Virus record (IMG/VR): IMGVR_UViG_3300035181_002074
Span: 64,001 to 128,000 of that record
Strand: one strand, 5' to 3'
Length of the DNA stretch: 64,000 nucleotides
Source of the DNA: a virus
Shown one piece after another: positions 14,357 to 20,255 of this stretch; positions within the stretch are counted from its first letter, which is position 1; each line of letters begins with the position of its first letter. The translations under genes and the position numbers were made by a program. The notes beneath the pieces were generated by a model that saw nothing but the letters and a program-made list of their open reading frames with translations, ran no database searches and was not told the origin of the DNA.

Positions 14357-14866
14357 TTATTTAATGGATCTCATCTGTTTGATCAAGTCAGATATAGCAA
14401 TAAATTCCTGATATGTGTATCGATTACCTTTAGCTTGATTACATTCCCAACAGCATGGAACGCAATTTGAATATAAATACCCTTTATCGTTATTCTTCCT
14501 GTCAAGAAAATATCCACGATACCCAAGTTCCCCTCTTTTTGTGGATCGTCTAATCTCAGTGTCGCAATAATGACAATCAGTCATAGTACAAAATGCTATA
14601 AATTCATCATAAGACATGACATCAACCCATCCTTTTCTGCGGTGGGCTCCTAGCATTTGCGTATATGCAGATTGGAATGGTTGTTTCTTTTGTGAACAAG
14701 ATGCACACAACCCAGTGTGTTTTTTATGGTATCCATGTTGCGTAGATATGTCAATCTGACATTTAAGGCAATTAAAATGATGTATAAAATACTTAAGTCC
14801 GGTTTTAGTATATCTAACTTCTTTAAATGTAGCTTTCTTTAAATCTAACATTTTTACAGACCGCAA
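14357..14866 (-). CDS. HNH endonuclease (putative free-standing homing endonuclease)
   Basis: CHYC...LDRKNNDKGY...NCVPCCWECNQAKG; N-terminal CxxC pairs. Confidence 0.85.
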   Translation of the reverse strand: MRSVKMLDLKKATFKEVRYTKTGLKYFIHHFNCLKCQIDISTQHGYHKKHTGLCASCSQKKQPFQSAYTQMLGAHRRKGWVDVMSYDEFIAFCTMTDCHYCDTEIRRSTKRGELGYRGYFLDRKNNDKGYLYSNCVPCCWECNQAKGNRYTYQEFIAISDLIKQMRSIK

Positions 14867-16482
14867 ACCCCATTAAGACAGGAATTTTCAACTTCTTCAA
14901 AAACAATTCCTTCTTGAGATAAAGCTTCTGACAAATCTACTCTGGTAAGTGGTTGACCACCTCTCGATCCATCTGGATAGCATGTAAATCCACGCAGTCT
15001 TTTAGCATATTTCAGCAAAATTCTAGAATTCACTTTCAATGTTTCTTCGTTATTGCCTTCACTGCCCCATGGCGGTAAATTACATGTACTGGAAATCGAC
15101 ATATCAACATAATCCTGAACATCTGCCTGAAATTTAACCCGTTGCTTAAAAGTAAGATCATATGCATCTTTAATATCTTCCATTTTGATTCCTTGGGCTA
15201 ATAAGCGTTTAACCGCGCCATCTACAACATATTGATATTTCCATGTATTATCTTTTAAATAGCGGCGCTTATACGCCTTACAGAATAATGGTTCAATGCC
15301 GGTAGTTGTCTCTGCGATAATACCAATAGTGCCGGTTGGTGCTATTGCTCTCACACCTTTCGGGACAGATACTCCCAATTGACGTGCGGTAATAAATGCT
15401 GATGAATCGGATTCATGCTCATAAATGCTAAGCCATTTATGCAATTCGGGGGTAACTTCGTAGTCATATCCACGAGCCATTAACCATTCATGCATACCGC
15501 CCAAACCCAACCCGATACGATTATTTTTATTTCCTATAAGTTTAATTTTTTCAGTTGGAACATCAGAATAAATTCCACCGCAAATTAAAAACTTGGTTGC
15601 GAATTTAACGACAAGAGCTAGTTCATCTTTATCTTTAATGCGATTGATCCATACCGTGCCCAGATTACATTTATCGCTATCATCCTCACTTACTACCTCG
15701 GTACACGCGTTACGTAAGTTTTCATCATCTTTCATAAAATTAAAAGCCATTCCGGGCTCTGCTGTGCTAAATGCTTTTAAGCAGTTTTCCTGCCAAACTT
15801 CTTTAGCTTGCTTGTAATCCGTATGTTTGGAATCTTCCATTGCAATAAAAAAATTCGTATCGTAATCAACAGAAATATTTGTTCCTTCCATTGGAAGTGG
15901 GAAATTAAAATCCTTCTCTTTTAGAGAACGGAGATCGGCTGACCAATCCTTTAATTTAAGGAATTTTGGTATATCGGCATGTGACCAGTTCAATCCTGCC
16001 CAGATAGCAGATCGACGCTGACCCCCTTGCATAATATATCTTCCTGCTTCATTGACCATATTCATAAGAGCTATTGGCCCAGTAGAAGTGCCGCCTGTCC
16101 GTTTAATAATTGAACCTTCTGGTCTAATTAATGAATAATTAACACCAATCCCCCCGCCAGTCATTAAGCCTGCACTGGATTTCTGGAGAATATCTGACCA
16201 TCCTTCACGACTATCTTCCGCTCGGAATAAGAAACAGTTATTAACTTGATGTAGTGGGCGCCCCGATGCATAAAGATATCTTCCACCGGGAATAAATTTA
16301 CGTTCTAGCATAAACTGGTAAATCTGTGCCTGTTCATCCTTAGATAAATATTGACCAGTAACACTGGATACTACACGTTTGCATGTATCTGCCCATGATT
16401 CCTGACCATCCTTAGAATATTTTTGAAGATATATGTCTTGTGAATATTTAGAACCAAATACGTCAAACTCGTCTTTTTTCAT
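14854..16482 (-). CDS. nrdJ: class II (B12-dependent) ribonucleotide reductase
   Basis: FIPGGR, NNCF, GGGIG, RRSA, NACTE, APTGT, C-terminal CLNGVCGL; no small-subunit gene nearby. Confidence 0.88.
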   Translation of the reverse strand: MKKDEFDVFGSKYSQDIYLQKYSKDGQESWADTCKRVVSSVTGQYLSKDEQAQIYQFMLERKFIPGGRYLYASGRPLHQVNNCFLFRAEDSREGWSDILQKSSAGLMTGGGIGVNYSLIRPEGSIIKRTGGTSTGPIALMNMVNEAGRYIMQGGQRRSAIWAGLNWSHADIPKFLKLKDWSADLRSLKEKDFNFPLPMEGTNISVDYDTNFFIAMEDSKHTDYKQAKEVWQENCLKAFSTAEPGMAFNFMKDDENLRNACTEVVSEDDSDKCNLGTVWINRIKDKDELALVVKFATKFLICGGIYSDVPTEKIKLIGNKNNRIGLGLGGMHEWLMARGYDYEVTPELHKWLSIYEHESDSSAFITARQLGVSVPKGVRAIAPTGTIGIIAETTTGIEPLFCKAYKRRYLKDNTWKYQYVVDGAVKRLLAQGIKMEDIKDAYDLTFKQRVKFQADVQDYVDMSISSTCNLPPWGSEGNNEETLKVNSRILLKYAKRLRGFTCYPDGSRGGQPLTRVDLSEALSQEGIVFEEVENSCLNGVCGL

Positions 16483-16548
16483 AATTATGTTTCCCCTTCG
16501 ATGATGTTGTTTTTCTATTTAATATTACCACGAAAAGTGGTGATGATT

Positions 16549-17142
16549 TTAAAAAATATCGGACAAGTTCAGATCTTTTTTCTTCACTGTAAAACTCTTG
16601 GTAAAGCCATACCAAGCTATGCAGCAGGCGTCAGCGATGTCATTATCTTTTAATAGTAGTTCTAGGCCAAATTTCTCATTCACCCAGTTAACGCTAAGAT
16701 GCTTCCAAGTGATTTTACCTTTGGCAGTTTTACGACTGACTTTTTTATTATGGGCACGTTGCTCTGTACTTAATTTAATTCCAAGGGTTCTGCGCCACAT
16801 AGAAGTATCAACGTAGCTTACCTTGTTTGCAGCACCGTATTCGCGCAACATTTCAAGAACTGCATAATGAACAAATTCCAATTGTTTTTGTGAGGTTCTA
16901 AATGAACCGGTATTCGTTTGCTCAATATAAACATGATCAAACTTAATGATTGCCTCATGAAGAATGATTACCGATTTAATCTGATTAGCTATTTCTTTGG
17001 CACGTAGCAATTGATCATAATCAGGAACTAACTCATAGTTATTGGTACTAGGCGCTTCAATAAATCCATAAATAGGCTTATTATCATCTTCAATAATCGC
17101 CCAACCTGTTTTTGTGGATAAATCGAGCGCCAATACCTTCAT
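16549..17142 (-). CDS. RuvC-like Holliday junction resolvase
   Basis: LALDLSTKTGWA, YIEQ, DIADA. Confidence 0.8.
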   Translation of the reverse strand: MKVLALDLSTKTGWAIIEDDNKPIYGFIEAPSTNNYELVPDYDQLLRAKEIANQIKSVIILHEAIIKFDHVYIEQTNTGSFRTSQKQLEFVHYAVLEMLREYGAANKVSYVDTSMWRRTLGIKLSTEQRAHNKKVSRKTAKGKITWKHLSVNWVNEKFGLELLLKDNDIADACCIAWYGFTKSFTVKKKDLNLSDIF

Positions 17143-17144
17143 GT

Positions 17145-17444
17145 TTAGGCTAGTTTACCGCGTTCTTTGAGTACTTGAACACTGAGTCCGCGCTTGAGGC
17201 GAATTGCCTTCAGGGGATCGGAATAGGTCTGATTGGCAGTCTTGAGTTCTTCTTTAATGCGTTCCAAGTCAGCATCTGCCTCTTTTGCTGCTTCAATATC
17301 AGCTTGATGGGATGCCATCTGAACTAATTTCTCTTTTAAAGCTTCATCTGACATAGAGTAAACTTCTGATGCGAAGGTAGCATCAACTGCGTTTACTTTA
17401 TCCCATAGAGTCGGTGGACCTTTTTTGCCTTTACCTTTTGCCAT
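17145..17444 (-). CDS. hypothetical protein
   Basis: 99 aa, AAGGA RBS. Confidence 0.75.
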   Translation of the reverse strand: MAKGKGKKGPPTLWDKVNAVDATFASEVYSMSDEALKEKLVQMASHQADIEAAKEADADLERIKEELKTANQTYSDPLKAIRLKRGLSVQVLKERGKLA

Positions 17445-17642
17445 ATTATTTTCCTTTTCCGTTATTATTTTGAATCAAATCTGATACATTGAATGATGTT
17501 GAAGCACCCACTGGGGTAACCGAAGTAATTCCAGCTGTGTTAGTATATCCAACTGTACTACCGTACAGCATGTCACTTGATATATTGCTTGCCGATCCCC
17601 AAGCAGCACCTCTATGGGTACCATTCAGGGTGAGATATGAAG

Positions 17643-17688
17643 GGGTCACTGTAAGGTTGTTACCAACCAGTGACCCTACTAAAAAGGG
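17643..17688 (-). promoter_or_regulatory. programmed -1 ribosomal frameshift signal
   Basis: In-frame C CCT TTT (17688-17682), 5-nt spacer, stem GGGTCACTG/CAGTGACCC with upper GTTG-GTAA-CAAC. Confidence 0.8.
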
Positions 17689-17888
17689 CGTACAATAACC
17701 TCAATCAACTCAAGGCGATCAACATATTGTTCTGGGATTTGACGAGCTACGAGCATTCCCACTTGTTTTTCATCTTTAGCTAAAAGCGTAGTAGGTTTAG
17801 TTAAGATTGTGGTCTTGCCAGTTGTTTGTCCGTCTTTACCGGCTTTTGGGTGCAATAGAATTGCGTATTCAAATAATTTCATTTTCAT
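17679..17888 (-). CDS. small hypothetical protein (69 aa, ends VRPF); -1 frameshift form predicted to extend to 17446
   Basis: AAGGA RBS and ATGGTATAAT upstream support ATG 17888; see findings. Confidence 0.8.
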   Translation of the reverse strand: MKMKLFEYAILLHPKAGKDGQTTGKTTILTKPTTLLAKDEKQVGMLVARQIPEQYVDRLELIEVIVRPF

Positions 17889-17910
17889 AATTTCGTTTCC
17901 TTCTGATCTA

Positions 17911-18336
17911 TTATACCATGTAATTTTGATAATTCGTCCAAAGAGTGTCAATAATGGTCATTTTATTTGAAATCATTGTGCAAGTAGACATTTTCATGAA
18001 TTTACCGACGTTCTTAGTTCGCAGATCATCCATAAACTGGATTAATTCTTGATACCCCATAGAAGACGTCTTAACGCTGGATGGCGGAAATTTATTTTTA
18101 TGAGCCACATAGTTCGCGTAAAACTCGGCTTCATCTCGATCAATGAAAGCTCTGTAAGTAAAAACTTGATTCTCATCCATCTCGTAACATAAAGCGGTTT
18201 TACCGGCAGCTTGTAAAAAAACTAAGTATAATGAGCCATTTTCATGAAGAACGTCGAAATACTCCGTTAAAAGTTCTCTAGACGGTGGAACTTTGATAAA
18301 TTCGTTACGCTTTGATAAAACTGCATTTTCCATCAT
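17911..18336 (-). CDS. hypothetical protein
   Basis: 141-aa ORF, GAGG RBS. Confidence 0.7.
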   Translation of the reverse strand: MMENAVLSKRNEFIKVPPSRELLTEYFDVLHENGSLYLVFLQAAGKTALCYEMDENQVFTYRAFIDRDEAEFYANYVAHKNKFPPSSVKTSSMGYQELIQFMDDLRTKNVGKFMKMSTCTMISNKMTIIDTLWTNYQNYMV

Positions 18337-20014
18337 ATGTTACCTCAATCACGTTGTCAAAACTTTCCTTGATTTCGGTCGAATGATCGATTATAATCAA
18401 AGTCCCGCTTATTTTTGGCTTCAAAGCTTCAATTGCTGCACGTTTAGACTCAACATCTAGCCCATCCATGCCTTCGTCTAATATCATCCACCCTAATGGA
18501 GATCCAGTGCGTCGCTTCACTACTTCGGCAATCGCTAAATCAACGCAAAGTTCGATCGCACATTGCTGCCCACCGCTTAAACTTTTACGCGAAATGATTT
18601 CAGATTGGCGATAAAGATTAATAGCTATGTTCTTCTTAATACTACCACCCTTAGTGATCGAATTAGATTCAAATTTCAAATAAATATGATTCACATTTTC
18701 AAATGAAGTCATGAAATCGTTTGTCTTTTGCTCGATTTCGGCTAAAACATTACTAAAAATTACGGACATGAAGCCAGATTTACTAAAAATATTCGCAATA
18801 TGCTTCTGTTTTTCTAGTAATTGGCTTGATGCAATCAGCTTGGATTTTATTTCCGCTTGTTTCGAGATGTTTGCCTCATGTGTGCGTAGTCCATTTTCTT
18901 CTGACTGCAATACTTGTATAGCCATAGACAATACTTGCTGGGTTCTGGACACCTCTTGGCCGATATTCGACAGCTGGGTATTCTTTTGTGCTAAGTTTAG
19001 TTCCAATTCTGGCAATCTATCAATTTCTAGCTGCACTTTTGGGATCATATCAATTAATGCCTGACGCCTTGCCAATAATTGACCCCCTTCTGTTTGTTTT
19101 TGCTCTAGTAAAAGGGAATTGTTGTCCCATTTTTGATTACATGTAAAACATTTTTGCTCGTTCAAGTGGTTAATCTCGCTAGCCAATGACGTTAATTTCG
19201 ATGTAATGCTAGATACTTCACTAGAATATAAAACAAGGTCTCTTTGGAATCCGCGAAGCTTGTTTATTTCATTTTTACTGTTATTGATCTCAAAAATTAA
19301 TGATTCTGGCACTTGATTGTTTAATTTTGCTGCGTCGTATTTAATCTGCGCATCAGCCACTTGAGTTTTTGCTGCGGCAATGAACTCTGAGCGATCCTGA
19401 GACATATTTATGATATCACTTACGGCGGTATATGAAGATTTAAATCCTTCGGTTAATCTTTCGGTGTTTTTTAAATCTAATTCAGCTTTTTCACACGCCT
19501 TTTCTAGATCGTCCAGTCCTAACACGCTACTAAGGAAATCTTTTTTGTATTGATCATTTGAATTAACGAATCGACCAAAACTTCGTTGTGATCTATAAGT
19601 CAGAGCTTCTACAATATTTAATGGAGTTTTTAATAATTCAACTAGCTTTTCTTCCGCAGCAACAGATTGCGACACATATGGCACACCATTAATAATAAGA
19701 GAGAGTTTGGGCGTCCTGCAAATAATAAATTCATTTGTGCCGTCAGATAATGTCAACTTAACGGACATTTTATCACTATCCCAGTTTTTTAATTCCGTTG
19801 CAGGTAGATCACAGAATCCAAGAGCAAAAGCTATTGCTTGAACAATGCTAGATTTACCGGTACCAGAAGTTACAGCACAGTCGGTGCGTTTACCGGTTAA
19901 TAAAATTGTAGTAGCGGAAAATTCGATAGATGTATAATGCTTAAATGAACGAAAACCTTCTAGCTCTAACCTAACTGGACGAAGAGTCGTATTATTTTTA
20001 AGATTCTGTATCAT
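18305..20014 (-). CDS. sbcC: SbcC/Rad50/gp46-like ATPase
   Basis: LEGFRSF, Walker A GTGKS, coiled coils with CFTC zinc hook, LSGGQ, ILDE, IIDH. Start set at ATG 20014. Confidence 0.9.
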   Translation of the reverse strand: MIQNLKNNTTLRPVRLELEGFRSFKHYTSIEFSATTILLTGKRTDCAVTSGTGKSSIVQAIAFALGFCDLPATELKNWDSDKMSVKLTLSDGTNEFIICRTPKLSLIINGVPYVSQSVAAEEKLVELLKTPLNIVEALTYRSQRSFGRFVNSNDQYKKDFLSSVLGLDDLEKACEKAELDLKNTERLTEGFKSSYTAVSDIINMSQDRSEFIAAAKTQVADAQIKYDAAKLNNQVPESLIFEINNSKNEINKLRGFQRDLVLYSSEVSSITSKLTSLASEINHLNEQKCFTCNQKWDNNSLLLEQKQTEGGQLLARRQALIDMIPKVQLEIDRLPELELNLAQKNTQLSNIGQEVSRTQQVLSMAIQVLQSEENGLRTHEANISKQAEIKSKLIASSQLLEKQKHIANIFSKSGFMSVIFSNVLAEIEQKTNDFMTSFENVNHIYLKFESNSITKGGSIKKNIAINLYRQSEIISRKSLSGGQQCAIELCVDLAIAEVVKRRTGSPLGWMILDEGMDGLDVESKRAAIEALKPKISGTLIIIDHSTEIKESFDNVIEVTYDGKCSFIKA

Positions 20015-20255
20015 CTGAAGTCTCAGGGGTAAATTTATCTGAATCTTGCTGGTCAATCTCATTAATATCTGACAATCGTTCTACAGCTCTGGCCATTAGA
20101 CCGTTATCTAATCTGTCTACTACCCGAACAGTCCCTGACTTAAATACATTTGGACAAGTAGCACCGCATTTATCACATTTCCATGTTTTTAATCGGGTAC
20201 CAGCTAAAATGCCAAAAGCTCCATGATCGGGACATTCATAAGTAAATATTGGCAT
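19998..20255 (-). CDS. FmdB-like zinc ribbon protein
   Basis: MPIFTYECPDHG...CDKCG. Confidence 0.75.
   Translation of the reverse strand: MPIFTYECPDHGAFGILAGTRLKTWKCDKCGATCPNVFKSGTVRVVDRLDNGLMARAVERLSDINEIDQQDSDKFTPETSDDTES

Follow-up and report, generated by a model that had tools for sequence, protein, structure and literature searches.

Comparative evidence for programmed -1 ribosomal frameshifting at the end of a small non-structural phage gene

A small gene within the window, the term used here for the whole stretch of 64,000 nucleotides that was analysed and which is part of the 160.6-kb IMG/VR record of an uncultured virus, ends in what is most probably a programmed -1 ribosomal frameshift site. 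This reading, to which a probability of about 0.86 is attached, rests on the comparison of related loci and on no experiment, and confidence is held at that level because there is as yet no reporter assay, peptide or ribosome profile behind it. Two products are predicted, one of 69 aa from the 0 frame and the other of 147 aa after a -1 slip. The gene is present as one copy in the whole 160.6-kb record, with no paralogue. Across its relatives, comparison at the level of sequence is sufficient to demonstrate that selection acts family-wide on the signal, on the open frame and on the tail, and that the tail is found in the same polypeptide in relatives. The mode of slippage, either tandem or P-site-only at the stop, along with its efficiency and the function of the protein, are inferred.

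How would such a site operate? When the ribosome reaches C CCU UUU a tRNA-Pro would lie in the P site and a tRNA-Phe in the A site, with the stem-loop that starts 5 nt further on inferred to hold the ribosome at the heptamer, and with the GAGG located 10 nt upstream and the adjacent stop possibly assisting the pause. Some ribosomes would then slip back by one base to CCC UUU, read UUA and add 78 codons to give the protein of 147 aa. The remaining ribosomes would stop at UAG and produce the 69-aa isoform that ends in RPF. Both isoforms would thereby share a compact N-domain, to which the long form would add a tether rich in Ser, Thr, Gly and Asn together with a terminal motif. The ratio of short to long form is inferred to be set by the efficiency of the frameshift.

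The shift site and its setting in the window

The features of the site and of the surrounding genes are collected in Table 1. A preliminary description of this DNA had located the end of the gene, the heptamer, the 5-nt spacer and the 9-bp stem, and had proposed that a -1 frame of 78 codons fills the gap to the next gene and leads to the two product sizes given above; these coordinates and sizes were all confirmed on the sequence. On its 5' side the -1 frame is closed by a TGA (17703-17701), after which it is open from 17700 to 17449, representing 84 codons from stop to stop with 78 of them lying after the slip. The frame opens 6 codons ahead of the first extension codon and so overlaps the shift site. 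By comparison, the 0 frame beyond the tandem TAG codons runs into a TGA after 9 more codons and then into more stops. Within the extension the residues Ser, Thr, Gly and Asn are abundant.

Table 1. Coordinates of the shift site, its predicted products and the neighbouring genes in the window.
Feature	Position	Strand	Remarks
0-frame ORF, short isoform P0001	17682..17888	-	69 aa; ATG 17888; C-terminus VRPF
Last codons of the 0 frame	CGC 17690-88, CCT 17687-85, TTT 17684-82, TAG 17681-79, TAG 17678-76	-	
SD-like AAGGA	17898..17902	-	9 nt 5' of ATG 17888; role inferred
SD-like GAGG	17699..17702	-	10 nt 5' of heptamer; dnaX-like spacing
Slippery heptamer C CCT TTT	17682..17688	-	X XXY YYZ phase
Tandem 0-frame stops TAG TAG	17676..17681	-	abut heptamer; first five bases form the spacer
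Stem-loop with 9-bp basal stem	17643..17676	-	begins 5 nt 3' of heptamer
-1 extension P0002	17449..17682	-	78 codons; first codon TTA re-reads T17682
TAA stop of -1 frame	17446..17448	-	one base short of next gene's ATG 17444
Conserved C-terminal tail module	17449..17526	-	...STSFNVSDLI... in the window; defined by family alignment
SbcC-like ATPase	18305-20062	-	
141-aa gene, function unknown	17911-18336	-	overlaps the end of the SbcC-like gene
99-aa gene	17145-17444	-	starts one base past the extension stop; no family match
RuvC-like resolvase	16549-17142	-	
B12-type class II ribonucleotide reductase	14854-16482	-	

The stem-loop is the probable downstream stimulator of the frameshift. Its arms, GGGTCACTG (17676-17668) and CAGTGACCC (17651-17643), are paired in the minimum-energy structure of RNAfold, which has a predicted energy of -20.7 kcal/mol and a z of -3.07, with equal folding reached in 2 of 200 shuffles. 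The preliminary description had capped the stem with GUUG-[GUAA]-CAAC, a GNRA loop, and here the basal stem survives but the apex does not, with RNAfold drawing instead an apical helix of GGU/ACC closed by the loop AACA. The GNRA version is an alternative apex of similar size that is not conserved in relatives. As a terminator the hairpin was rejected, as it has no U tail and is not reported by a terminator scan. On the other side of the heptamer, the GAGG motif is a possible upstream stimulator, with a role that is inferred.

The region from 14854 to 20062 on the minus strand forms a block of recombination and nucleotide metabolism genes. The non-structural setting that had been put forward for the gene holds, both in the window, with its SbcC-like, RuvC-like and ribonucleotide reductase (RNR) genes, and in relatives, where a lysin, thioredoxin, clamp loader, SNF2 helicase and metallophosphoesterase are found as neighbours. 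The neighbours vary by locus, with the recognisable ones belonging mostly to replication, recombination or nucleotide metabolism. A conserved neighbour that might have served as a clue to function was looked for and the idea rejected, since the downstream genes differ among loci. The product of the 99-aa gene located past the extension in the window begins with a stretch rich in Lys and Gly (MAKGKGKKG...) and contains a probable coiled coil, and the downstream gene at one other locus (L032) likewise starts with MAKHKKDK, although this neighbour is not conserved generally. The closest RNR from an isolate phage, that of Roseobacter phage CRP-3, is only about 52% identical to the RNR of the window.

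The gene family and the conservation of the shift site

A word-based search with the short protein returned four homologues with 57-68% identity, all of which end in VRPF. A family profile was built from these and P0001, five sequences in total, and searched against 1.84 billion representatives, giving 742 cluster representatives at E<=1e-3. The representatives are mostly 62-75 aa in length with the domain extending to the C-terminus, and RPF is the C-terminus in 125 of the best 150 of the 742, which bears out the earlier suggestion that similar small phage proteins end in this way. No match to Pfam or PHROG was found for P0001 or for the extension, nor to Rfam for this region of the window. 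When 119 family members were compared with PHROG, no PHROG family matched more than one member and the E-values were only 0.004-0.009. Against 50,697 phage records no match was obtained by blastn of 17100-18400 or by tblastn of P0001, and two other members used as queries matched only the uncultured 735-kb LR756501 and LR756503. The searches run, with these three members as queries, hence returned no family member from isolate phages, and a profile scan of genome contigs revealed no prophage copy. A literature search found no paper describing this frameshift family, and the gene family may be new and not previously described.

In LR756501, a 735-kb uncultured huge phage, the gene ends CGC CCT TTT TAA and is followed by a -1 frame of 188 codons. 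The record (locus L066:1693-2267) is without annotation, and the -1 frame encodes collagen-like Gly-X-Y repeats (GTS/GSS), after which there is a clean intrinsic terminator.

For the comparison, loci were gathered without regard to their C-terminus or slip site, through either whole-protein similarity or an N-terminal peptide pattern. The pattern alone gave 49 IMG/VR loci, contigs of close homologues were added, and the total including the window amounts to 48 distinct loci that range in GC from 27 to 67%. The presence of an open -1 frame in homologues, an expectation of the preliminary description, is met in 48/48 of these loci. The open length is 44-154 codons, with the contig of one locus (L009) ending after 44, and in the window and many relatives only a few nt separate its stop from the gene that follows. 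In the 49 loci found by the pattern the +1 frame reaches 44 codons in 3 and the 0 frame in 5.

Homologues were also examined for slippery nucleotides and not only for the amino acids RPF, and the nucleotides too are kept. A perfect X XXY YYZ heptamer is present at 42/48 loci, made up of CCCTTTT (24), CCCTTTC (14), AAATTTT (3) and CCCTTTG (1), with the other 6 imperfect at the first base. With the sole exception of CCCTTTG, the perfect heptamers conform to the H_HH.U_UU.Y pattern (H = U, C or A). In E. coli such sites belong to the most efficient motifs, and the tetramers U_UU.C and U_UU.U also shift readily by themselves given a stimulator (PMC4066793), which is in keeping with the imperfect sites as well as with the main heptamers. 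At the terminal Pro position CCT is used in 44/44 loci, compared with 30/163 (18%) for the other Pro codons of those genes, and in the GC-rich loci the corresponding values are 21/21 at the terminal position versus 8/87 elsewhere. Similarly, the terminal Arg codon is CGC in 39/47 loci against 18/91 (20%) elsewhere. Genes whose product ends in RNF rather than RPF carry CGA or AGA and then AAT TTT, creating A AAT TTT, another perfect heptamer; these RNF variants are an instance of covariation of the slip-site codons. The 0-frame stop lies directly 3' of the heptamer at 47/48 loci. The stop itself is TAG at 35/48, TAA at 9 and TGA at 4, and the first predicted residue of the extension is Leu except for Val in L032 and L046, with the second often Ala or Val.

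The sequences on either side of the heptamer also show features in common. A GGAG, GAGG or AGGA is found 6-14 nt upstream of the heptamer in 16/48 loci, against about 11% of control windows, and this SD-like motif may stimulate the frameshift, although it is absent from the other loci and its role is an inference. Downstream, a hairpin within a few nt of the heptamer is mostly kept in homologues but with a different sequence in each lineage, as had been anticipated. When six lineages were folded singly a stem-loop appeared 3-7 nt past the heptamer in each, with unrelated sequences, and compact stems of about 7-13 bp, again unrelated in sequence, occur in many or most loci. Compared with 70-nt windows taken elsewhere in the respective locus, the 70 nt that follow the heptamer fold more stably over the 48 loci (mean z = -1.0; t-test p = 2e-7). 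A minority lack a convincing hairpin, for example L040, L043 and L055. Compensatory changes of base pairs are seen between close relatives, such as C-G to U-A in L012 vs L025 and several pairs among L033, L023 and L035, and the RNAalifold consensus has double changes in 2/4 pairs.

The tail, its presence in one polypeptide and other explanations

Five natural members of the family carry the tail in frame (P0041, P0061, P0081, P0096 and P0153). These in-frame tails have a like composition and end in the same module, with for instance TQSFNAQDL in P0096 and STSFNVSDL in the window. They are not the outcome of one-base homopolymer errors, because none of them continues RPF-L. The genes for these long forms fall into two arrangements. 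In L060 and L062 the equivalent position reads CGA or AGA followed by CCA TTT, which is non-slippery, and a separate short paralogue of 66-67 aa without a slippery site lies directly downstream, so that the tandem pair looks like a two-gene replacement for the frameshift. Here the long form (L060:922-1459 and L062:206-728) overlaps the start of the short paralogue by 20 nt, and the paralogues end in RKF or RQF. In L061 (1501-1878), L063 (626-1030) and L064 (307-747) the in-frame long form retains the site, as CGC CCT TTT with the full C CCT TTT in the first two and as GCG CCT TTT in the last, and the -1 frame meets an immediate stop after it (TGA, TGA and TAG, respectively). A slip at these loci would therefore yield the short form, ending in RPF or, for L064, APF. 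Both isoforms appear to be needed, a judgement drawn from gene structure and made because three gene layouts supply short and long forms.

What is the nature of the two parts of the protein? The AF2 model of the N-domain is a beta-beta-alpha-alpha-beta fold with a pLDDT of 92.7. With this model as query, Foldseek found no match in PDB or BFVD at E<=1e-3, and a wide VIA-align search gave a best Z of 6.2, to PurS, eukaryotic ribosomal large-subunit proteins and PaaB, which is below a meaningful level. In the ESM Atlas only hypothetical viral clusters were recovered for the N-domain, and the fold searches support no function. In the AF2 model of the in-frame protein P0096 the pLDDT of the tail is 53-59, a short helix covers the terminal motif, and the tail is not confidently docked on the N-domain. 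The tail is probably disordered. The tail module has the family consensus N-Y-T...S-x-S-Y/F-N/T-A-A/S-x-L/I/V. In a leave-one-out search with an HMM of the tail the -1 ORF of the window ranks first of 944 six-frame ORFs of the window, with a weak E-value, and family tails come out on top with E-values of only 0.1-1.

The tail evolves rapidly. Differences between L013 and L016 number 18/19/19 by codon position in the tail and 3/0/8 in the N-domain; L016 and L017 differ at 18 nucleotides in the tail and at none in the N-domain. Fast divergence without an excess at third positions fits either a disordered linker or diversifying selection. Classical purifying selection is not seen in the extension outside the C-terminal module because of this near-neutral pattern of codon positions, and outside the last ~25 residues the constraint seems to be that the frame is kept open and the composition maintained, as for a disordered tether. 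The conserved terminal motif is inferred to be a docking peptide for an unidentified partner, with the function of the protein unknown.

Several points count against a frameshift, namely the lack of experimental evidence of any kind, the almost neutral evolution of the tail outside its C-terminal module, the weak HMM scores of that module, the imperfect first position of the heptamer in 6/48 loci, the minority of loci without a convincing hairpin, the restriction of the SD-like motif to a third of the loci and the existence of GTG 17649 within the extension. The last of these raises the question of whether the 78-codon frame is a separate gene, initiated independently at this GTG or, by coupling to termination at the TAG, at a non-canonical codon, and with the heptamer conserved only since the protein needs RPF. 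Codon 12 of the extension is indeed a GTG in the window, L007 and L008 have one at codons 12-13, and in L002 a GTG overlaps the stop and one gene caller reports a separate 65-aa ORF in the tail region. In none of the called genes examined is the trans-frame product present, and the tail region otherwise stands as a gap without annotation. However, when GTG 17649 was checked as an alternative start, a possibility already raised in the preliminary description, it turned out not to be conserved: the first start codons are scattered in position among loci, the extensions of L040 and L042 lack ATG, GTG and TTG altogether, that of L011 lacks them for 48 codons, and in the window the GTG is placed in the 3' arm of the stem without an SD. 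Moreover, a requirement for RPF cannot account for the invariant CCT, for the prevalence of CGC or for the switch to A AAT TTT, and the in-frame fusions join the tail to the N-domain, all of which makes an independent gene very improbable. Slippage by RNA polymerase, which would add one U at the T5 run and so produce the same RPF-L... fusion, is credited with no greater likelihood. The T5 homopolymer and the identity of the product, which is a reading of the sequence rather than a result, leave room for it, but the slippage-prone runs known in bacteria are usually far longer than five bases. There is also only T3 in the 14/48 loci with CCCTTTC and no long conserved run, and an event in transcription does not depend on the conserved CCC, on the covarying A AAT TTT or on a hairpin.

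It is also conceivable that the downstream frame is not translated at all, being open by chance or for some reason at the RNA level, with the hairpin acting as a terminator or processing site and only the 69 aa being made. The near-neutral codon positions, the tail pLDDT of 53-59 and the lack of a family match would be in keeping with this. Against it, chance openness is excluded because the frame is open in 48/48 loci that have no detectable nucleotide similarity, in the window, as in many relatives, the frame stops only a few nt from the following gene, the hairpin has neither a U tail nor a hit in the terminator scan, and proteins with the tail in frame have been called. An untranslated frame is accordingly rated as marginally less credible than the two preceding explanations. 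Readthrough or reassignment of the TAG, which would extend the 0 frame, is refuted by the sequence. TAG is the stop at the majority of loci (35/48) and its reassignment is known in some uncultured phages, but relatives also use TAA and TGA and their 0 frame is short, and in the window neither process can explain the gap because the 0 frame closes after 9 codons. Programmed -1 frameshifting during translation remains the favoured reading.

Known recoding systems and the significance of the family

The mechanism proposed is that of a canonical -1 frameshift; the novelty lies in the gene family and its breadth, in the non-structural setting and in the three layouts. The nearest parallel is with the gpG/gpGT frameshift of lambda, a feature that long-tailed phages have conserved (Xu, Hendrix and Duda 2004, via PMC5009743). 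As in lambda, a -1 shift at a heptamer towards the 3' end of a small gene leads to short and C-terminally extended products, the arrangement is conserved over widely diverged proteins, and a fixed ratio of isoforms that share an N-domain is the likely purpose. In contrast to lambda, the present gene is not located between the major tail and tape-measure genes, the heptamer C CCU UUY directly adjoins the stop, and the family, with its N-domain of ~65 aa, has no Pfam or PHROG match; in these same databases no homology to tail assembly chaperones was found for either P0001 or the extension.

The dnaX gene of E. coli, which gives tau and gamma, offers a second comparison through its combination of a heptamer, a downstream stem-loop and an SD-like element some 10 nt upstream. 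The layout of L061, L063 and L064 is dnaX-like, in that the 0 frame is long and a -1 slip leads to an immediate stop and a short product. In the window and most of the family the polarity is opposite, with the slip giving the long form. The dnaX heptamer is A AAA AAG and its protein unrelated, and the SD-like element is found here in only a third of the loci. The T7 gene 10A/10B pair and other extensions of phage structural proteins are similar in having a minor, C-terminally extended isoform that is made by recoding at the end of a gene. They differ in that they are capsid or tail proteins, whereas nothing here indicates a virion role, and in that the tail of the present family is a fast-evolving, low-confidence linker with a short motif rather than a folded domain. 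Conserved frameshifts of tailed phages are known almost only in tail assembly chaperones, with a few in capsid or tail genes (PMC5009743; PMC10885494).

A broader interpretation, for which the odds are put at slightly below even, is that this is an undescribed large family of at least 742 clusters at 50% identity, recovered in the present searches only from uncultured phage and metagenome sequences and including a 735-kb phage, which depends on two isoforms supplied via three interchangeable layouts, and in which the rapidly diverging tether and its conserved terminal peptide serve for docking to a partner of the host or the phage. If the interpretation is true, this partner may belong to replication or recombination, or may be engaged in an arms race with the host. 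To our knowledge, annotation pipelines join frames only in the tail and capsid genes referred to above, and the annotation of hundreds of phage genomes would need to be corrected. Research on recoding would gain a natural series of variants in heptamer, spacer and hairpin that spans a GC of 27 to 67%, and the three alternative layouts would in themselves argue, by comparison, that the isoform ratio matters. The family would represent a second recoding family of equal depth of conservation, in this case in early or replication-type neighbourhoods, and a small protein with a tethered peptide motif would be flagged for functional study.
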